A stretch of 64,000 nucleotides of DNA from an uncultured Clostridia bacterium (GTDB lineage: Bacteria > Bacillota > Clostridia > Oscillospirales > CAG-272): NCBI GenBank assembly GCA_944381075.1, contig CALWJT010000006.1, positions 7,575-71,574 on the forward strand, written 5' to 3'. Below are positions 11,627 through 57,965 of the stretch, one piece after another; positions within the stretch are counted from its first letter, which is position 1, and each line of letters starts with the position of its first letter. The notes beneath the pieces are model-generated. The model did not search any database. It saw only the letters and a list, made by a program, of their open reading frames with translations, and was not told the DNA's origin. The position numbers and the translations under genes were made by a program.

Positions 11627-12558
11627 GAGTCCGCCCTCCGAAGGACCGCTTCCGCCTCATCCATGACCTCTTTGACAATCTGGGCCGCCGGCTGTTCCTT
11701 TTTCACCATCGCCGCGATCTGACCGGATAAAAAGCATCCCTTCTCGATATCGCCCTCCTGGACCGCGATCCGGAAAGCCCCCGTCGCCAGCGCCTCCAGC
11801 TCGTCGTCCGGCATGCCGCCGTACTCCGCCTTGGCGTAATTCTGAGAAAACCGGGTCCGCAGGCTGCGTACGGGATGGCCGAGCCGCTTGCCGGTCACCA
11901 TCGTGCAAAGATCGGTCGCCTTCAGGATCTTTTCCTTATAGGTAGGATGGATGGTACATTCCTCGGCAGAAAGGAAGCGCGTCCCCATCTGGATGCCCAC
12001 CGCGCCGAGCATGAACGCCGCAGCAGCGCCGCGTCCGTCTGCGATGCCGCCGGCTGCGATCACCGGAAGCTCCGTCGCGTCGCAGACCTGCGGGACAAGC
12101 ACGATCGTCGTAAGCTCACCGACATGACCGCCGCTTTCCCCGCCCTCCGCAATCAGCGCGGTGGCGCCGAGACGGGTCATCAGCTTGGCAAGGGCAACGG
12201 AGGCCACCACAGGGATCACCTTGATCCCCGCCGCCTTCCAGTCCTTCATATATTTGGAAGGATTGCCCGCTCCCGTCGTCACGACCGGAACGCCCTCCTC
12301 GACAACGACTGCCGCGACCTCATCGGCATGCGGACTCATGAGCATGATATTGACGCCGAACGGCTTTTTCGTCAGGGATTTGACGATCCGGACCTGTTCG
12401 CGCACATAAGAGGCCGGCGCGTTCCCCGCGCCGATGATGCCAAGTCCGCCTCCCTCGGAAACCGCCGCCGCAAGCTTTCCGTCGGCGATCCACGCCATGC
12501 CGCCTTGAAATACCGGATACTGGATCCCGAGTATTTCGCAAATTTTGGATTTTATCAT
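11614..12558 (-). CDS. fabK: Enoyl-ACP reductase II (FMN, nitronate monooxygenase family)
   Basis: 314 aa with YPVFQGGMAWIA. Its position in the fab cluster supports the call. Confidence 0.85.
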   Translation of the reverse strand: MIKSKICEILGIQYPVFQGGMAWIADGKLAAAVSEGGGLGIIGAGNAPASYVREQVRIVKSLTKKPFGVNIMLMSPHADEVAAVVVEEGVPVVTTGAGNPSKYMKDWKAAGIKVIPVVASVALAKLMTRLGATALIAEGGESGGHVGELTTIVLVPQVCDATELPVIAAGGIADGRGAAAAFMLGAVGIQMGTRFLSAEECTIHPTYKEKILKATDLCTMVTGKRLGHPVRSLRTRFSQNYAKAEYGGMPDDELEALATGAFRIAVQEGDIEKGCFLSGQIAAMVKKEQPAAQIVKEVMDEAEAVLRRADSWLG

Positions 12559-12561
12559 AGC

Positions 12562-12798
12562 TTACTCCTGCGTCTTGCCCTGTGTTTTGCTTTGAATGAA
12601 TTTATCCAGATCCGCAACCGTCTCGACCTTCTGGTCAAGCTCGATTTCAACGCCGATTTCATCCTCAAGGCTCATCAGAAGCTCCACGGTATCCAGAGAG
12701 TCGATCCCAAGCTCTGCAAAGGTGCTTTCCGGCTTGATGGTCGAAATGTCACAATCGGTTCTTTCTGCAATAACTTTTGCAATCGCGTCAAAATACAT
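12562..12798 (-). CDS. acpP: Acyl carrier protein
   Basis: 78 aa with the LGIDSLDTVEL phosphopantetheine site. GGAGG lies 9 nt upstream of the ATG at 12798, so the longer ORF to 12921 was rejected. Confidence 0.9.
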   Translation of the reverse strand: MYFDAIAKVIAERTDCDISTIKPESTFAELGIDSLDTVELLMSLEDEIGVEIELDQKVETVADLDKFIQSKTQGKTQE

Positions 12799-12865
12799 GG
12801 TAAAAATACCTCCAAAATTTTTCGAACAATTTGATCTGTGATATAGGTATTGTCCGTCGTCCTCT

Positions 12866-12874
12866 ATTATACCA
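12866..12874 (-). promoter_or_regulatory. Extended -10 element (TGGTATAAT) of the fab operon promoter
   Basis: Read on the minus strand about 68 nt upstream of the acpP ATG. No good -35 was found. Confidence 0.35.
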
Positions 12875-13254
12875 AATCCCAGTTCCCGTTCGGTTCCATA
12901 AGAGTTCCTTCTCCGTTCCAAATTTCATTTAAACTGTGAATTTTTTGTAAATTCTGAATTTGCTGGTGAAAATTGGCGGCTAAGATGTTTCCATTTTCCC
13001 CATTTTGATTATTTTTCAATCATGTCGGCTTTTGCTATCCCTTCGGCACGATATTCCTGTACGAACGATGCCTCCCCGCAGCCAACAGCCCCTCTGTCAT
13101 GGCGGACGGTCCCGAATATGCAGCGATTCTGCTTTTTTCCTGCAAGGATCTATCCGACTGCCGTCCCTTTGCTTTCCTTTCAAAACATTCGCCTGAAAAC
13201 GCCGTCTCTCGGACTCGCCGCTTTCCTTTTTTTCCGGCGCCCTAAAAAGGAAAA

Positions 13255-13283
13255 AGCCGCATGGAGGACCTCTCATGCAGCCT
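13255..13283 (-). terminator. Candidate intrinsic terminator after the MFS gene
   Basis: Imperfect stem GCTGCATG...CATGCGGC followed by TTTTT on the minus strand. Confidence 0.4.
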
Positions 13284-13290
13284 TTTATTT

Positions 13291-14535
13291 TTATCTGTCA
13301 CAGACGGAGGAATGTTTTTTCCTCACCGTTCTTGTTAGAATCAGGACCGCCGCGACGCCGGCAAGCGGAAACAGAGAAGCCGCCAGCATACCGAGCTTCA
13401 GTCCGATCTGTTCCGCAGACAAGCTCTCCGATAAAGATGCGAAAAACGCGCTTTGTGAAACGGCATCCGTGATCCCGCCGACAAGCTGCGGCGCGATCGA
13501 TCCCCCAAGATCGCCGCCCGCCGCAAGCAGCGCATATACGGCGACGCTCGCCTTCGGAATGGACTGCGCCGTATAAATCAAAGTCCCCGGCCACAGCATG
13601 GATACGCAGAGCCCGGTGAGTGCACAGGCGGCAAGTCCCACGACGGCATTCTGGGAAAGCGCGGCGGTAACATAGCAAAGAAAAGCGCCGGCAAATCCAA
13701 GCAATAAAAATCTTGAAATATTTTTGCCGAATTTTGCATAAAGCGTTCTGCCAAGTCCCAGCATGACAGCAAAAACGGCGACGCCGAATACATCTCCCCA
13801 AAGCTTCGGGAGCTTCAGTGCCGCTTCAAGATAGCCGGAGCACCATTGTGACATGGTATTCTCAGAGGCTCCTCCTAAAAAGATACAGAGCACACAGAGC
13901 AGCAGCACAGGATTCCGAAGCGAGCTGCCGGCGCTTGAGGCTTTTGCCATCTCGAGGGCAGGAAGCTCCGAGCACGAAAAAAGGATAAACGCGGAAAGCG
14001 GCAGCACCGCCCAAAGCATCGCAAGAAAATACCACGCTTCCCTGCCGAATATCTGAAGATACAGCGTACTGACAAGAACCACTCCCGCAACGCCCCAGGC
14101 ATATACGGAATGGGCACGGCTCATGTCCCGCTCCGGATTGTCGGACGGCAGCGCCGCGATGACAGGACTTATCAAGACTTCAGCAAGTCCGGCAGACGCT
14201 GAAAAAATCACAGTCCCAAGCACAAGAAACCAATAGGCTTTCTCGGCAAACAGCGCCGGCAAAATGGAATACACAAGAAGCCCGACGACAGTCAGGACCG
14301 GCATAACGCGCACGGTTTTCTGGATCGGAAACCGGTGGGAAAAGAAAGAAAAAACAAGGTCCACACAAAGCTGCGTACAAAAATTGATCAAAACCAAAAG
14401 TCCGAGCAGCGTATAGGAGATCCCATAGAGCTGATGGAAGGTGATGAACAGAAGCGGCGACAAATTCGCCACCGCCGCCATGGAAACGTTGGACATATAG
14501 CAGGCATATCGAACGACTGAGGGACGAGTACACAT
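13291..14535 (-). CDS. MFS transporter
   Basis: 414 aa, highly hydrophobic with about 12 predicted helices. The exact start is uncertain. Confidence 0.7.
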   Translation of the reverse strand: MCTRPSVVRYACYMSNVSMAAVANLSPLLFITFHQLYGISYTLLGLLVLINFCTQLCVDLVFSFFSHRFPIQKTVRVMPVLTVVGLLVYSILPALFAEKAYWFLVLGTVIFSASAGLAEVLISPVIAALPSDNPERDMSRAHSVYAWGVAGVVLVSTLYLQIFGREAWYFLAMLWAVLPLSAFILFSCSELPALEMAKASSAGSSLRNPVLLLCVLCIFLGGASENTMSQWCSGYLEAALKLPKLWGDVFGVAVFAVMLGLGRTLYAKFGKNISRFLLLGFAGAFLCYVTAALSQNAVVGLAACALTGLCVSMLWPGTLIYTAQSIPKASVAVYALLAAGGDLGGSIAPQLVGGITDAVSQSAFFASLSESLSAEQIGLKLGMLAASLFPLAGVAAVLILTRTVRKKHSSVCDR

Positions 14536-14742
14536 AGACGAACCGATCCTTTTTTGATTTTCCGCCGTATTTTCCGCGGACGCCCGGCAAAGGCGCCGTA
14601 TAAAATTTCGGCATATGTTTCAGTATAGCACAGCAGAAGGAACAACGCAACAGAAAAATCGGCGGACCGCAAGACTTTGTCTGCACAAGCCTTAGAAGAG
14701 AAAAAACAAAAATTTTTTAAAGGAAGGATTGCGGCAGATAAG

Positions 14743-15018
14743 CTATCTTCGTCTCTTTGTTCTCTTTTTGCTTTTGCACCGCGAACGGCAAAAAAGCAGA
14801 TTCTTCAAGCAGGACTTCAAACGCGCCGCCTCAGGATATGGCAGATACCGGCTTCCAAGCTGGGCGCGGAACAGCCGGTTCATATTCCGTTTATGCCGGA
14901 AGCTGAAGCTTTCCGGCATTTCGGCAAACGAATTCCATCTTTCCATTTCCCTGTCCTGTGCATTTGTCAGCGCTTCCTTTAAAACTTTTTCAAAGTCCTT
15001 CTCTTTTTTTTCCTGCAT
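14743..15018 (-). CDS. Hypothetical small protein, possibly a gene remnant
   Basis: 91-aa ORF with a weak RBS. The arginine/lysine-rich C-terminus looks non-genuine. It is the first ORF that the invertible promoter would face after inversion. Confidence 0.2.
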   Translation of the reverse strand: MQEKKEKDFEKVLKEALTNAQDREMERWNSFAEMPESFSFRHKRNMNRLFRAQLGSRYLPYPEAARLKSCLKNLLFCRSRCKSKKRTKRRR

Positions 15019-15058
15019 TTTAACGTTCTTCCCGGCAGATTTTTTTCACCGGTGTTCT

Positions 15059-15077
15059 CCTATTAACATAATAGATG
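15059..15077. repeat. Left inverted repeat of the candidate inverton
   Basis: 19/19 complementary to 15205-15223. Confidence 0.9.
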
Positions 15078-15158
15078 AACATATCCGCAAAAAATCTGTT
15101 CAGAAAAGAAGAATGCGGAGGGAATCAAATTGTTCTTTTCCCAATATTCTTGCCTAAC

Positions 15159-15187
15159 TTTACAAAATATGTAATCTGTGTTAGAAT
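15159..15187 (+). promoter_or_regulatory. Sigma-A type promoter inside the inverton core
   Basis: TTTACA, a 17-bp spacer ending in the TGt extended element, then TAGAAT. Confidence 0.55.
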
Positions 15188-15204
15188 ATGTATTGTAAAA
15201 CTTC

Positions 15205-15223
15205 CATCTATTATGTTAATAGG
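15205..15223. repeat. Right inverted repeat of the candidate inverton
   Basis: 19/19 complementary to 15059-15077. It ends 12 nt before the recombinase stop codon. Confidence 0.9.
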
Positions 15224-15235
15224 CACCATATTCCG

Positions 15236-16165
15236 TCAAAAAAGCTCGCCAATCCTGTCCATCATTTCTTTTTTATGCTCCATGAGCGAATGGACATATC
15301 GATTCAGCGTAATGGCAGGCGACTTATGCCCAAGGATCTCGGAAAGCGTCTTTGCATCCATCCCGCATTCTATGGCACGGGTAGCAAAGGTATGGCGCAG
15401 GGTATGGAATTTCCTTTTCGGAATTCCAAGCTTTTTCAAAAGCAGCTCAAAGCTCCGCTGATAGGAGCGGACAGAAACCGTTCCGCCCGCGTCTGAAATG
15501 ACATAGGAGGAAACACGGCTTTCCCGCATGTCCCGCAAAACCGGAAGGATCGAGCCCGGCAGCGGGATCACACGCCTTGAGCTTGCGGTCTTCGGCGTAT
15601 CTATGATGCGGCAGAATACGCCCTTCTCATCCCTTCCGTCATAGCAGGACTTTTCCACAAAAAGCTCTGCCCTGTCAAAATCGATGTCATCCCATTCCAG
15701 CGCCAGCAGCTCTCCAATGCGAAGACCGGTATATAAACATAACACTATGCCCTTCATCTTGTCCCTTTTGTCTGTCATTGCCGCGCGCTCGAGTATTTTC
15801 TGTTCAGCGACCGAAAAGCAGGAAACCTGTCTTTCGGCGGACTTCGGCCTTTTGACTTTATTCATCGTATAGTCCGCCGTCAGTCCCAGCTCATACGCCG
15901 CCTTAAGCGAGCTTCGTATCACGGAGAGGATCCCATCCACCGAATTTGCCGACAAGCCCTTCCCCGTCTTTAAATTACCGCTACGCAAAAGCTCCGTCAT
16001 ATAATGCTGGATCCGCAAAGGAGAAAGCGCCTCCATCTCATATTCTCCGAGCTGTGGGATCAAGCGCCGGCAGATAATCTCCTCATATCGGCAAAAAGTT
16101 CTATTTTTTGAGGAAGGCTTGATATAAATATCAAGCCATTCTCTCAGCCATTCTTGATATTGCAT
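15236..16165 (-). CDS. Tyrosine site-specific recombinase (phage-integrase/Xer family)
   Basis: 309 aa with an N-terminal SAM-like domain. Catalytic signature present: GLRIGE (Arg), HTLRHTF (HxxR), LGH, NRYVH (Tyr). Confidence 0.9.
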   Translation of the reverse strand: MQYQEWLREWLDIYIKPSSKNRTFCRYEEIICRRLIPQLGEYEMEALSPLRIQHYMTELLRSGNLKTGKGLSANSVDGILSVIRSSLKAAYELGLTADYTMNKVKRPKSAERQVSCFSVAEQKILERAAMTDKRDKMKGIVLCLYTGLRIGELLALEWDDIDFDRAELFVEKSCYDGRDEKGVFCRIIDTPKTASSRRVIPLPGSILPVLRDMRESRVSSYVISDAGGTVSVRSYQRSFELLLKKLGIPKRKFHTLRHTFATRAIECGMDAKTLSEILGHKSPAITLNRYVHSLMEHKKEMMDRIGELF

Positions 16166-16187
16166 ATGGAGCCTCCTTTCTTTCTAT

Positions 16188-16217
16188 ATTTTATCCATGA
16201 AAAAAAGCAGAATTCAA
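16188..16217 (-). promoter_or_regulatory. Candidate promoter of the recombinase gene
   Basis: TTGAAT, 18 bp, TAAAAT on the minus strand. AAAGGAGG RBS lies before the ATG at 16165. Confidence 0.4.
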
Positions 16218-16303
16218 AGCCGTTTATTTTTCAGAAAGAAAAAGAGACCGATTGAAGCATCCCGCATTCAGACAAAAAAAGGCAATCCGCACAAAGCGGA
16301 AAA

Positions 16304-16327
16304 GGCGCTGTGATTTTTCACAGCGCC
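16304..16327. terminator. Bidirectional hairpin terminator
   Basis: GGCGCTGTGA / TCACAGCGCC stem with a TTTT loop, flanked by A- and T-runs. Confidence 0.55.
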
Positions 16328-16361
16328 TTTTCCGTCCTTGGAAGAAAATATCTGCCCCTAC

Positions 16362-16399
16362 AAAAAGCACCGGCTTCGTTTTGATAAACGAAGCCGGTG
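16362..16399 (-). terminator. Intrinsic terminator of the M6 protease gene
   Basis: 12-bp stem CACCGGCTTCGT / ACGAAGCCGGTG followed by CTTTTT on the minus strand. Confidence 0.65.
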
Positions 16400-16439
16400 A
16401 CAGCAGAGAGGTTACTGCAAAGACTTCAGCAGCTGACGG

Positions 16440-18617
16440 TCATTGCTCCACCCACTTCGCGTAGAGCGAGAAATCCTCTGTGCCGCTTTCAATCACAGTA
16501 TTCATATCAAACGGTTCGGTAAGTGCCTCGTCGTAATACCAGCCCTCCAGCGTATAGCCGGGCTTCTTATTGCTGATGCTCTTCAGCCAGCCCGACGGGA
16601 TGGAAAGCGTTTCGCCAAAGTCCACACGGATCCCATAGCCGCTCGCACCCGTATCGGAATACAGCGTGACGGTCGCATATTCCTTCGGCTTCGGCATAGA
16701 GGATGTCGGCGTATTGCCGGTAGCCTCCGCATAGCCGTTGTCACTGTTGACAAACACCTTATAATAGTATCGCGTTTCCGGCGTCAATCCGTCGAAGGTC
16801 GCGGTAAAGGTATTGTTCTCGCCAAGCTCCGGCACTTTGATGACAACATTCTCCTGAAAATCCGGATCGGTCGCCAGCATAATTCCATATTCGGAAATGA
16901 CGGACTCGTTTACAGCGTCGACCGTTCCTTTTACCGTAATCGAATCGTAGGACTTTTCCGAGTACTCAGCAGACAGAATCGGCGCATAATCCTTGGTTCC
17001 GGTTGTGATTTTAATGGTCATCTCCTGTCCGGGCTCGCTCAAAACCTCGATTTTCAGGTTAAAATTCTGCTTGCCTTCCCACGAAGCAGGATAGGAGTTC
17101 AGCGACTGGGTTCCGTTGGTCACAGAACGGAAATCGCCGGAATTGAAAATCGCGGTAGAAATGTCGTCGCTCAGATAATAGAACGGGTCCATCGGATTGG
17201 TATTTGTCATAAGCTGTCCCGTCTTGTCATAGGCGCCGCGGAACAGCGGAACGATTCCGGGATCATGGCGCTTACCGGTCGAAGCGTCCGCATAGGAGGA
17301 CGATGCCATGCCGGAGGCAAAATATTTCCGGTTAATCTCCTCGTCGATGTGCCACACCATGATACCGCCCTTGGAGTCGCCGTCCGTCAGATTCTTTTCA
17401 AAGCCCTCCTTCAGGCGGATCTCGATGAGATAGTATTCGTCAGGGTCCGGCGTATTGACGCGAAGGACCGTATATTTATCGGTGCATGTAGAGTAGATGG
17501 TGTAAACGCCGTCCTCCACCACATGCTCCTCCGCCCAGCCGAGATAGATTCTCTGGTACGGGTCGAGATAGGACGGCATGGTCCCATAGCCGCAGTTGTT
17601 GCCGTTGCACTGAAGCGAGAAATAGTAGGCTCTCGGCCAGCCGGAAATCGTACCGCCGGTCGCGTTGACATTACGATCATAGAGGTCCTCCGCACCAAGA
17701 TTGTGCGCAAGCTCATGGACCGGAACGCCGATAGGCAGAATGTTGCCGACCGTCTTGTATTCTCCGACGTTCGAGACCTTGGAGAACGAAACGCCGTCGA
17801 GATAAGCGTTCAGGCTCTGAGAGGTTCCCCAAACCTCGAAATAGAATCGGGGAGCACCTGAATTGCCGCCTGATTTACCGCTGCTGCTGGAAGCGTCAGC
17901 GCCCGGATTCAGAATAATGACGCCAAGCTCCATCTCGTCGATCTTGCCGTTTCCATTCTTATCGAGCTTTGAAAAATCAATGTAAGGATCGCAGGCGCTG
18001 AAAATCTTTGTGATCGTTCCCTGCGCGTCGCCGGACGCCGAAGGATGCGGAATATCCACAACGACCTCGATCATGCCGTTCGGGACCGGAGAATTTTCCG
18101 GCATCACATCGAACTCAATCGGCACAAAATGAAACGCGCCCATCGAAAGCTCGTCATAATAATTGGTCAGCGAAGCGCCGTCGCCGAAATAAAGCTCATA
18201 ATGCTCGAGCAAATCGGTGCCCGCCCACTGTTCGCCGTAATAGTCCTTTGTTTTATCACTATAAAGCTTGTCGGGATCGTTCTCATCCCAATCGTTGACG
18301 CCATTCCCGTTGGCATCGAAGTTCGCAAGAATAATGAGAAGCGGGATCTCCGTCGTTTCCGTGACGGGAGACGCCTCGATCTTGATGGCATTTTCGATTT
18401 CGTCAAGCGGAAGCTCCGTTTGCCCCGTCGTGGTCTCACCCGGCGTCGGAAGCGAAGACGTCGTCCCGTCCGTGGTCGTCTCGCCCGGAGTTGTCTCACC
18501 CGAGGTCGTTCCTGTGGAAGAGCTGTCAGTTGGCTGCGTATTGCCGCAGGCGCCTACCGCAATCAGCATCACGGCGCAAAGCAGAGCGGCAAACAAGCGT
18601 TTCAGATTCGTACCCAT
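16440..18617 (-). CDS. Secreted lipoprotein, M6 (InhA-like) zinc metalloprotease with Fn3-like and Listeria-Bacteroides repeat C-terminal domains
   Basis: Lipobox LIAVGACGN followed by a T/S/G/E-rich linker. Zinc motif HELAHNLGAEDLYD. C-terminal GYTLEGWYYDEALTEPFD repeat. The start was trimmed to the ATG at 18617, which has an AAAGGTGA RBS. Confidence 0.7.
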   Translation of the reverse strand: MGTNLKRLFAALLCAVMLIAVGACGNTQPTDSSSTGTTSGETTPGETTTDGTTSSLPTPGETTTGQTELPLDEIENAIKIEASPVTETTEIPLLIILANFDANGNGVNDWDENDPDKLYSDKTKDYYGEQWAGTDLLEHYELYFGDGASLTNYYDELSMGAFHFVPIEFDVMPENSPVPNGMIEVVVDIPHPSASGDAQGTITKIFSACDPYIDFSKLDKNGNGKIDEMELGVIILNPGADASSSSGKSGGNSGAPRFYFEVWGTSQSLNAYLDGVSFSKVSNVGEYKTVGNILPIGVPVHELAHNLGAEDLYDRNVNATGGTISGWPRAYYFSLQCNGNNCGYGTMPSYLDPYQRIYLGWAEEHVVEDGVYTIYSTCTDKYTVLRVNTPDPDEYYLIEIRLKEGFEKNLTDGDSKGGIMVWHIDEEINRKYFASGMASSSYADASTGKRHDPGIVPLFRGAYDKTGQLMTNTNPMDPFYYLSDDISTAIFNSGDFRSVTNGTQSLNSYPASWEGKQNFNLKIEVLSEPGQEMTIKITTGTKDYAPILSAEYSEKSYDSITVKGTVDAVNESVISEYGIMLATDPDFQENVVIKVPELGENNTFTATFDGLTPETRYYYKVFVNSDNGYAEATGNTPTSSMPKPKEYATVTLYSDTGASGYGIRVDFGETLSIPSGWLKSISNKKPGYTLEGWYYDEALTEPFDMNTVIESGTEDFSLYAKWVEQ

Positions 18618-43183: not shown

Positions 43184-43242
43184 AAAAAAATCGAAAAATC
43201 CTTTTTCCAAACAAAAATTTTAAAGGATTTTTCGATTTTTTT
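43184..43242. other. AT-rich perfect 21-bp inverted repeat (hairpin or bidirectional terminator-like)
   Basis: AAAAAAATCGAAAAATCCTTT (43184-43204) and AAAGGATTTTTCGATTTTTTT (43222-43242) with a 17-nt loop. Confidence 0.6.
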
Positions 43243-55690: not shown

Positions 55691-57085
55691 TCAGCCCTCC
55701 ATCTCCCTTACAAGCTCACAGAAGCGGTCGCCGCGGCGCTCGAAATTCGGAAATGCGTCAAAGCTCGCCGCCGCCGGCGACAGAAGAACCGTATCTCCTG
55801 TCTGCGCGCGTCCTGCGGCGTACCGCACCGCATCGTCGAACGAACCGATATAAGCAGTTCTCTCCCGCGGATAGCCGTGCGCCACAAGCTTTTCCAAAAC
55901 CTGCATGCCGGTCTCGCCCGTCGCCGTGACAAACTTCGCCTTCTCGGCAAGAGGGGCGATGAGCGGTTCGACGGGGATGTGCTTATCATAGCCTCCGACG
56001 ATAACGATCAGCGGCTCCTCGAACGAGGCAAGCGCCGCAAGCGTGCGCGTGGGACTGGTATCGATCGAGCTGTTGTAGAATTTCACGCCGCCCTTTTCCG
56101 CCGCAAGCTCGATCCGGTGCCGCACGCCGCCGAAGGTGCGCGCGACCTCCGTCATATCGGCGATGTCAACGACGCCCCAAACCGCGCAGATCGCCGCCAT
56201 ATAATTTTCCACATTGTGCAGGCCCACAAGCCTGATATCGGAGCGGTCCATGACAAAATGCTCCGTTCCGTCATAATACCAGAGCGCCCCGTCACGGAAA
56301 TAGCAGGCGTTCCGATGCGCAAGCGTGCGCCGCGAGGAAAACAGCGTGACCGCGGCGCACGCTTCCTTCGCCATCGCCCGCGTGATCTCGTTTTCCGCAT
56401 TGAGCACAAGGCGGCAGCTTTTGTCCTGATCGCGATATATATTTTTTTTGCTGTCTATGTACTCCTCCATCGAGGTGTGCCAGTTGAGATGGTTCGGCGT
56501 GACATTGGTAACGACTGCACACCACGGGGAAAACCGCATCGTATGGAGCTGAAAGCTCGAAAGCTCCAGCACGGCGAAGTCCTCCTCCCGCATTTTCTCC
56601 ACCGCGGAAAGGAGCGGCGTGCCGATATTCCCGCCGAGGAACACGCGCGCACCGGATCTTTCTGCCGCGCGCTCCAGCATTTTGGAAATAACGGTCGTCG
56701 TAGTCGTCTTGCCGTCGCTGCCCGTCACGGCAAAGATTTTGCACGGGCAAAGGGACACCATGACCTCCATTTCCGAGGTCACGACCGCTCCGCGCGTCCG
56801 CGCCGCGAGGAGCTCCGGCACATCATATCGAATGCCGGGGGACTTGAAGATCACGTCCTCGTCGAGTGACGAAAGATATCCTTCCCCATAAATCATACGG
56901 ATCCCGCGCTCCCTTAAAAACCGTTCCGTTTCGCCGTCCGGCACGGGACTTTTGTCGCGCGCGGTAAGCACTGCCCCGCAGGACAGCAGAAAATCCACTG
57001 CCGCACGGTTGCTGATGCCCATGCCGACAAGGGCGACCCTTTTTCCTCTTATCTCTTTTTTGAACGCTTCCAGCTTTCCATTCAT
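55691..57085 (-). CDS. murD: UDP-N-acetylmuramoylalanine--D-glutamate ligase
   Basis: Motifs VALVGMGISN and VTGSDGKTTTT. The start at 57085 follows GGAGG. Confidence 0.9.
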   Translation of the reverse strand: MNGKLEAFKKEIRGKRVALVGMGISNRAAVDFLLSCGAVLTARDKSPVPDGETERFLRERGIRMIYGEGYLSSLDEDVIFKSPGIRYDVPELLAARTRGAVVTSEMEVMVSLCPCKIFAVTGSDGKTTTTTVISKMLERAAERSGARVFLGGNIGTPLLSAVEKMREEDFAVLELSSFQLHTMRFSPWCAVVTNVTPNHLNWHTSMEEYIDSKKNIYRDQDKSCRLVLNAENEITRAMAKEACAAVTLFSSRRTLAHRNACYFRDGALWYYDGTEHFVMDRSDIRLVGLHNVENYMAAICAVWGVVDIADMTEVARTFGGVRHRIELAAEKGGVKFYNSSIDTSPTRTLAALASFEEPLIVIVGGYDKHIPVEPLIAPLAEKAKFVTATGETGMQVLEKLVAHGYPRERTAYIGSFDDAVRYAAGRAQTGDTVLLSPAAASFDAFPNFERRGDRFCELVREMEG

Positions 57086-57107: not shown

Positions 57108-57965
57108 TCACAGCGTGAGCATATCGGAGATCCGCGCAAAATCCACAAGACCGAGCGCCTCGCCTCGGATATCCGTCCGATAGCCGAGCGCCGCAAGCGT
57201 CTGCTCGATCTCCGCCTTCGTATGGCGGATGGTTTCCCCCGCCAGAGAATTGGCAAGCGTTTTTCTGCGCTTGGCAAACGCGCCGCGGATGACCCGCATC
57301 AGATTTTCGCGGCTCTTACATTGTACGGGAGGGGAGCGGTAAAGGTTCATGCGGATGACCTCGGAGGTCACCTTCGGCGGCGGAAGGAAGCTCGACGGCG
57401 AAACGGAAAAGCACTTTTCCGTTTCGGCATAATATGCGCACACCGCCGTGATCGCACCATATTCGGGCGTTCCGGGCAAGGCGCAGAGCCTGTCCGCTAC
57501 TTCTTTCTGGATCATGACCGTCACCGCCTCAAAAAGCCCATCCGTTTCAAGCAGGCGCAGAAGAATCGGAGACGTGATATAATACGGAAGGTTGGCGCAG
57601 ACGCAGACGCGCATCCCGCCGAACTCCTCTTTTACAAGCGCCGCAAGATCAATCTTCAGCGCATCTCCCTGTACCACCCTGACATTTTCATAGCCCGAAA
57701 GCGTCTCTGCAAGTACCGGCAGCAGGGAGCGGTCCAGCTCGACTGCCACGACTCTGCGGTAGCGCTGCGCAAGCTTCTGGGTCAGTGTCCCGATGCCGGG
57801 ACCGATCTCAAGGATCCCCAGCTCATCGTCTCCCATGCCCGCCGCCTCCGCGATCCTGCATACTGTATTTTCCTGAATCAGAAAATTTTGACCATACCGT
57901 TTCTGCGGCGCGACGCCGTATTTCTGCATCAGGGAACGAACCGTTGAAATATCCGTCAGCCTCAT
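57108..57965 (-). CDS. rsmA: 16S rRNA (adenine1518/1519-N6)-dimethyltransferase
   Basis: Motifs QNFL, LEIGPGIGTLT and NLPYYITSPIL. The ATG is at 57965. Confidence 0.9.
   Translation of the reverse strand: MRLTDISTVRSLMQKYGVAPQKRYGQNFLIQENTVCRIAEAAGMGDDELGILEIGPGIGTLTQKLAQRYRRVVAVELDRSLLPVLAETLSGYENVRVVQGDALKIDLAALVKEEFGGMRVCVCANLPYYITSPILLRLLETDGLFEAVTVMIQKEVADRLCALPGTPEYGAITAVCAYYAETEKCFSVSPSSFLPPPKVTSEVIRMNLYRSPPVQCKSRENLMRVIRGAFAKRRKTLANSLAGETIRHTKAEIEQTLAALGYRTDIRGEALGLVDFARISDMLTL

Follow-up and report, generated by a model that had tools for sequence, protein, structure and literature searches.

A putative fim-like promoter switch beside its own tyrosine recombinase in an uncultured gut Clostridia bacterium

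Introduction

The described invertible promoters that come closest to the locus treated here include fimS of Escherichia coli, which is served by the recombinases FimE and FimB. The fim invertible segment is 314 bp long, and in fimE the control of the recombinase is orientation-dependent. In C. difficile, the RecV switches (cwpV, flgB and cmrRST; Cdi1-7) are intergenic invertible segments of 154-230 bp that control downstream genes; RecV serves several unlinked sites in trans, and an adjacent recombinase is found only at Cdi7 (PMC5903667). Many Bacteroides invertons are flipped by the global serine invertase Mpi (cited in PMC5903667). For the defined gut community hCom2, a 2025 survey (PMC11892184) describes inverton group 139 with invertase group 35, comprising 33 invertons from 17 strains, 32 of them in Clostridia. 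Nearly all members of group 139 have an adjacent tyrosine-type recombinase or integrase, and orientation shifts were observed in read data (PMC11892184).

Phase variation in uncultured gut Clostridia has so far mostly been catalogued and little dissected. Here we follow up a preliminary description of a 64-kb stretch of DNA from such an organism (64,000 nucleotides, referred to below as the window), in which a short invertible promoter segment next to a tyrosine recombinase gene had been proposed. The locus was compared with homologous loci in other Clostridia and with further assemblies of its own species.

Results

Inverted repeats and core sites

The sequence CCTATTAACATAATAGATG at 15059-15077 and its exact reverse complement at 15205-15223 match at 19 of 19 positions with 127 nt between them, and constitute the longest perfect spaced inverted repeat of the 64-kb window. 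This pair alone accounts for six 14-mer inverted-repeat seeds, against a mean of 0.22 in first-order Markov simulations, and the window holds two copies of the 19-mer at three or fewer mismatches where 0.02 would be expected. The 127-bp segment between the repeats (15078..15204), the putative invertible core, has a GC content of 31% compared with 53% across the window. The preliminary description was thus accurate for both the 19/19 repeat and the AT-rich core.

Judged by sequence, the 19-mers are the common portion of larger core sites. The proximal (recombinase-side) repeat at 15205..15223 belongs to the proximal core site; it ends 12 nt from the stop codon of the recombinase gene, and its position equals that of the proximal core sites in more than 60 loci of the family described below. 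The distal core site (15054..15080) is a 27-bp near-palindrome, GTTCTCCTATTA-ACA-TAATAGATGAAC, which contains the repeat at 15059-15077 and differs from the family consensus by one mismatch. It forms the centre of an extended imperfect palindrome of 63 bp (15036..15098), whose 30-nt arms are 73% complementary. Because extra half-sites flank the distal core in family loci, this palindrome may provide accessory binding positions.

Written on the recombinase coding strand, which is the reverse complement of the plus strand of the window, the predicted proximal junction is GGTGCCTATTAACATAATAGATG joined to GAAGTTTTACAATAC in the reference orientation and GGTGCCTATTAACATAATAGATG joined to AACATATCCGCAAAAAATC in the flipped orientation, the latter also given as GGTGCCTATTAACATAATAGATG joined to AACATATCCGC. 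On the same strand, the predicted distal junctions are GCGGATATGTT joined to CATCTATTATGTTAATAGGAGAAC (reference) and GTATTGTAAAACTTC joined to CATCTATTATGTTAATAGGAGAAC (flipped). Elsewhere in the window, a long hairpin at 43184-43242, rich in AT and bordered by A and T runs, has the look of a bidirectional terminator, and a 15-nt perfect inverted repeat with arms 456 nt apart was observed in GC-rich, apparently coding sequence at 56924-56938 and 57394-57408.

The adjacent tyrosine recombinase

The gene at 15236..16165 (minus strand) encodes a tyrosine recombinase of 309 aa, a putative dedicated invertase, with Pfam matches to Phage_integrase (E 4e-26) and Phage_int_SAM_3. Residues R149, K192, H254, R257, H280 and Y290 were invariant in an alignment of 31 sequences, which agrees with the earlier view of an intact enzyme. 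Homology searches returned 7866 homologues at E<=1e-3; proteins of this type, of about 309 aa, number in the thousands, and the closest outside the species of the window share 60-70% identity. The best PDB match was the Tn1549 integrase (E 5e-15). Based on NCBIfam models, the recombinase scored below the cut-offs for the FimB/FimE family NF007371 (20 bits against 222) and for XerC/XerD (TIGR02224, 77.8 bits against 335; TIGR02225, 54.2 against 330), and it likewise stayed below the NCBIfam cut-offs for the integron family.

No phage or conjugation genes were seen near the recombinase gene, as the preliminary description had noted, and none of the phage and plasmid relatives of the protein exceeded 40% identity. 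These neighbours and these low identities speak against a phage or conjugative-element integrase. In the locus of the closest recombinase from another species (L108:4690-4990; 70% identity, same upstream neighbours) we observed a proximal core directly followed by an N-terminally truncated histidine-kinase ORF, and no distal core. This arrangement may represent a rearrangement or a chimeric contig.

Promoters and neighbouring genes

A promoter scan ranked TTTACA-17-TGtTAGAAT as the top promoter-like site of the region (15159..15187, plus strand; -35 at 15159-15164, -10 at 15182-15187), at 10/12 plus the extended TG. This is the sigma-A-like promoter already reported for the core. It sits where the family has TTGACT-17-TGnTATAAT, with hexamers slightly weaker than the family consensus, and is conserved in a related species (L107). 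The promoter previously assigned to the recombinase gene at 16188-16217 corresponds to a promoter-like site, TTGAAT-18-TAAAAT (minus strand, 9/12), and the hairpins that had been placed beyond this gene were located at 16297-16334 and 16368-16399. Upstream of the recombinase gene lies a gene for a 775-aa secreted protein with weak similarity to M6 peptidases, followed by terminator hairpins. One further candidate, TTAACA-16-TACAAT (15219-15192, minus strand), reads toward the cargo in the present orientation; it was taken as a chance match since it has no counterpart in other family members. A scan of 12500-17000 against Rfam gave nothing near the gathering score.

Downstream on the recombinase strand, the gene order is a 91-aa ORF, a transporter of the major facilitator superfamily (MFS) and then the acpP/fab genes of fatty-acid synthesis. 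The first cargo gene (14743..15018, minus strand) begins 40 nt beyond the distal repeat and encodes a basic protein of 91 aa. All strains keep this ORF intact. Its homologues form only two clusters among 5.8 billion proteins, and a motif is common to it and the ORF behind the switch at locus L051. In L107 a homologue of equal length and 47% identity is located behind the same switch. The layout bears out that inversion would turn the core promoter to face this small ORF.

The MFS gene (13291..14535, minus strand; Pfam MFS_1) had been included in the proposed target as part of a transporter locus switched ON and OFF. A terminator scan detected none between the 91-aa ORF and the MFS gene (14536-14742), and some read-through into the latter is therefore possible. 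However, an extended -10 promoter-like site, TTGCGT-17-TGCTATACT, was read by eye between the two genes (14622-14650, minus strand; TGCTATACT at 14622-14630). It is conserved among strains, and its -35 element lies below the detection level of the promoter scan. The MFS gene is probably driven from this promoter of its own, which makes strict ON/OFF control of the transporter unlikely and a switch dedicated to the 91-aa ORF more likely. We infer that the 91-aa ORF is the gene regulated by the switch.

Just outside the distal core, several strains lack one base of the T7 tract at 15040-15046, which reads A7 on the coding strand, and the difference brings another upstream start codon in frame with the small ORF. 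Gene calls of 101, 112 and 152 aa for this ORF (minus strand) were rejected as signs of inversion: the ORF itself is unchanged, and the calls differ because the tract upstream of it is either A7 or A6.

A family of recombinase-plus-cassette modules in Clostridia

In order to find related loci, species-representative genomes were scanned with an alignment of 31 recombinase homologues. Among the 599 pattern matches listed, 574 encode a recombinase relative, corresponding to at least 574 loci, of which 80 were fetched. All were from Clostridia MAGs, including Christensenellaceae, Oscillospiraceae and Ruminococcus, and in these 80 species-level genomes the recombinases beside the module are 55-63% identical. 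A 14-nt inverted repeat with at least 12/14 matches, starting within ~130 nt after the stop codon and with a gap of 90-175 nt, was present in 61 of 67 testable loci, whereas controls (upstream of the recombinase gene; shuffled sequence) peaked at 10-11.

The module, as defined from loci L016-L095, consists of a proximal core site 10-60 nt past the stop codon of the recombinase gene, a core of 104-160 nt, a distal palindrome and a cargo gene on the same strand. The distal core is the palindrome GTTCAYCTATTA-N3-TAATAGRTGAAC, with a long form TTTGTTCAYCTATTA-N3-TAATAGRTGAACAAA, and a further half-site often precedes the next gene. The family promoter, in the AT-rich core, reads outward through one of the core sites, from which it is ~15-25 nt away. 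In many members the proximal core doubles as a terminator-like hairpin with an A-run, a palindrome and a T-run. All of the defining features recur in the window, namely the repeat 12 nt after the stop, the 127-nt core, the distal core with its single mismatch and the same-strand 91-aa ORF. By these features the element is one of many Clostridia loci in which a conserved module lies beside a homologous recombinase.

The gene after the switch is encoded on the recombinase strand, and its identity varies widely across the family. The cargo includes N6/N4, EcoRI-type, C5 and MmeI-type DNA methyltransferases and SNF2/ResIII helicases, as well as a reverse transcriptase, a VanZ protein, several lipoproteins and small proteins, a range typical of phase-variable genes. 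Most often the gene encodes an uncharacterised protein of ~160 aa (..IYRVSFIGHR..KEYVEFYVGRNGEFD..), with no significant match in Pfam or NCBIfam (best match YpsA SLOG, E 0.15). It is the first gene after the switch in L017-L020, L023-L025, L027, L029, L030, L033, L037, L038, L042, L044, L048, L057, L063, L065 and L067, and could be an accessory factor of the switch rather than cargo. In L017, L024, L025 and L044 the gene for this protein is followed by a second complete cassette with core sites and promoter, ~700-1020 nt past the recombinase stop codon, so that one recombinase apparently serves two tandem switches. In L025 the promoter of the second cassette faces away from the recombinase, in L044 toward it.

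Orientation across the family and in the species of the window

Across 70 family loci the promoter was directed toward the recombinase in 56 and away from it in 12. Opposite orientations were observed between close relatives. In L086 and L076, the flanks are 99% identical on the recombinase side and the cores are 99% identical when one is read as the reverse complement, compared with 59% in the same orientation. The corresponding values for L019/L023 against L033 are 86-90% in the flanks and 90% as the reverse complement against 66% in the same orientation, and for L085 against L089 they are 82-86%, 72% and 50%. In addition, the inner edge of the proximal core is exactly where three MAG contigs (L062, L068 and L084) stop, as is expected of an assembly graph when the reads contain both orientations, since the repeats are shorter than the assembly k-mers. 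Taken together, the opposite core orientations in close relatives and the contig ends at the core edge indicate that the switch family inverts. The inverton architecture proposed earlier gains from the same opposite orientations and from the conserved module. Contig ends at the proximal core were seen in different assemblies (L062, L068, L084 and L004:4739-4757), and, as an assembly signature of mixed orientations, could serve to find such switches.

Assemblies of the species of the window were gathered by exact-protein look-ups with the recombinase, two near-identical variants of it, the 91-aa ORF and the MFS gene, and by an exact 19-mer scan of JGI metagenome contigs. The promoter faced the 3' end of the recombinase gene, as in the window and as first described, in 31 of 31 independent assemblies containing both repeats; a flipped copy was found in none of these 31 informative public assemblies. 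Consensus assemblies show the majority orientation alone, and an ON fraction below 50% would therefore never appear in them. The sole hint of orientation heterogeneity in this species is a break in a Logan contig (L004, ERR10101752), which terminates on the final base of the proximal repeat. In L107, where the small ORF has diverged to 47% identity, the repeats, the promoter and the orientation are the same, yet the middle of the core has diverged, which points to selection on the repeats and the promoter. In a strain of the window's species (L126:1501-1673) the core is 134 nt long, with 7 additional nt and unchanged repeats. Both orientations thus occur among homologous switches in relatives, with no flipped copy among the 31 assemblies of the species itself.

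Discussion

Proposed mechanism

The sequences compared show the anatomy of the element, its conservation across species and, between related genomes, the inversion of homologous switches in nature, and we consider it probable that the element is a fim-like ON/OFF promoter switch with its own tyrosine recombinase. The recombinase would bind two core sites in inverted orientation, each made of two GTTCAYCTATTA-type arms around an asymmetric 3-nt centre (ACA/TGT). As this centre fixes the inverted orientation of the sites, recombination between them would invert the core. The 127-bp segment is predicted to hold one strong sigma-A promoter that always reads outward through one of the core sites. 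In the OFF state, which is the assembled one, it would read across the proximal site and enter the recombinase gene from its 3' end, and since it faces the recombinase the cargo would not be driven. In the ON state it would read via the distal site, with transcripts starting ~70 nt ahead of the 91-aa ORF and possible read-through into the MFS gene. In the species of the window the switch would be mostly OFF.

Transcription in the OFF state would presumably dampen expression of the recombinase. In a strict scan, a terminator blocking the antisense transcript was detected in 15 of 54 family members in the 'off' orientation and not in the window. Antisense feedback on the recombinase, which the preliminary description had also suggested, is plausible in the window because no terminator intervenes, but the terminators in relatives argue that such control is not universal in the family. 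A tentative extension, which we put forward with some doubt, is that the unit could be a self-latching, portable phase-variation module placed before diverse cargo, in which the default promoter, antisense to the recombinase, holds the switch OFF. Self-latching would account for the recombinase-facing orientation in 56 of 70 family loci and in all 31 assemblies.

Alternative explanations

The unanimous orientation in the species could also mean that the switch is a locked or fossil one, of invertible ancestry and with no or negligible inversion now, with the promoter permanently facing the recombinase gene and the 91-aa ORF either silent or otherwise expressed. We regard this as unlikely, even though 0 of 31 flipped copies contrasts with 12 of 70 loci in the other orientation across the wider family, and the promoter hexamers TTTACA and TAGAAT are degenerate compared with the family consensus. 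A fossil is difficult to reconcile with perfect 19/19 repeats and an intact recombinase with all catalytic residues, or with repeats and promoter kept in L107 despite a small ORF of 47% identity. The contig break of L004 exactly at the repeat edge speaks against it as well, and a minority ON fraction below 50% is invisible in consensus assemblies. We infer that the window copy still flips, with the ON state confined to a minority subpopulation.

The terminator-like hairpin at the proximal core of many family members, and a Tn1549 integrase as best structural match, would fit repeats that serve another purpose, either as binding sites for autoregulation or termination of the recombinase transcript or as the attachment site of an integrative element. 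This is improbable given the clean inversions between two sites in family members. For an integrative element, phage or conjugation genes are missing nearby, phage and plasmid homologues all stay below 40% identity, and the neighbouring genes are common to the species with the 70%-identical recombinase, which implies long residence. That a short AT-rich segment with terminal inverted repeats is a miniature inverted-repeat transposable element (MITE), or arose by chance, is an explanation to which we give hardly any credence. The two repeat copies in the window already exceed the chance expectation of 0.02, and the element invariably accompanies the 3' end of a recombinase gene. Dispersed copies, the check for a MITE named in the preliminary description, were found neither in the 64-kb window nor in JGI metagenome contigs, where the exact 19-mer occurred at this locus and as three unrelated single matches. 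The latter (L012-L014) were rejected as further copies, being unrelated AT-rich DNA.

Significance and comparison with known systems

The proposed switch adds a well-delimited, sequence-defined family, with a core-site consensus, a promoter and a recombinase, in hundreds of species of uncultured gut Clostridia. The core-site consensus makes such switches findable by sequence alone, and the junction strings given above are exact enough for read-level tests. For the window, the 91-aa protein and possibly the MFS transporter beside the fatty-acid synthesis operon are flagged as candidates for expression in a subpopulation only. The strong bias toward the recombinase-facing orientation provides an opportunity to test whether a switch controls its own enzyme.

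In its layout the locus resembles the fim system of E. coli, where the recombinase gene also lies immediately upstream of the switch on the strand of the regulated gene (fimE-fimS-fimA), and where a short invertible promoter segment is combined with recombinases of the tyrosine class and a promoter that faces the recombinase gene when OFF. It differs from fim in its 127-bp core, in 19-bp repeats within 27-bp palindromic cores compared with 9-bp repeats, and in having one recombinase, outside the FimB/FimE family, instead of two, in a Gram-positive gut anaerobe. With the RecV switches it shares a clostridial host, a tyrosine recombinase, a similar size and flanking repeats, but the architecture sets it apart, as each switch here has its own adjacent recombinase, linked in cis. 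Group 139 of hCom2 could be this family or a sister of it, although the two examples printed for that group have cores of 206 and 228 nt, compared with 104-160 nt here (PMC11892184). The Bacteroides invertible promoters are likewise promoter invertons, on capsule and other surface loci and on restriction-modification genes, with a similar cargo spectrum, and are distinct in repeat motif, promoter motif and phylum. By this comparison the element very probably joins a known kind of system, the promoter inverton.
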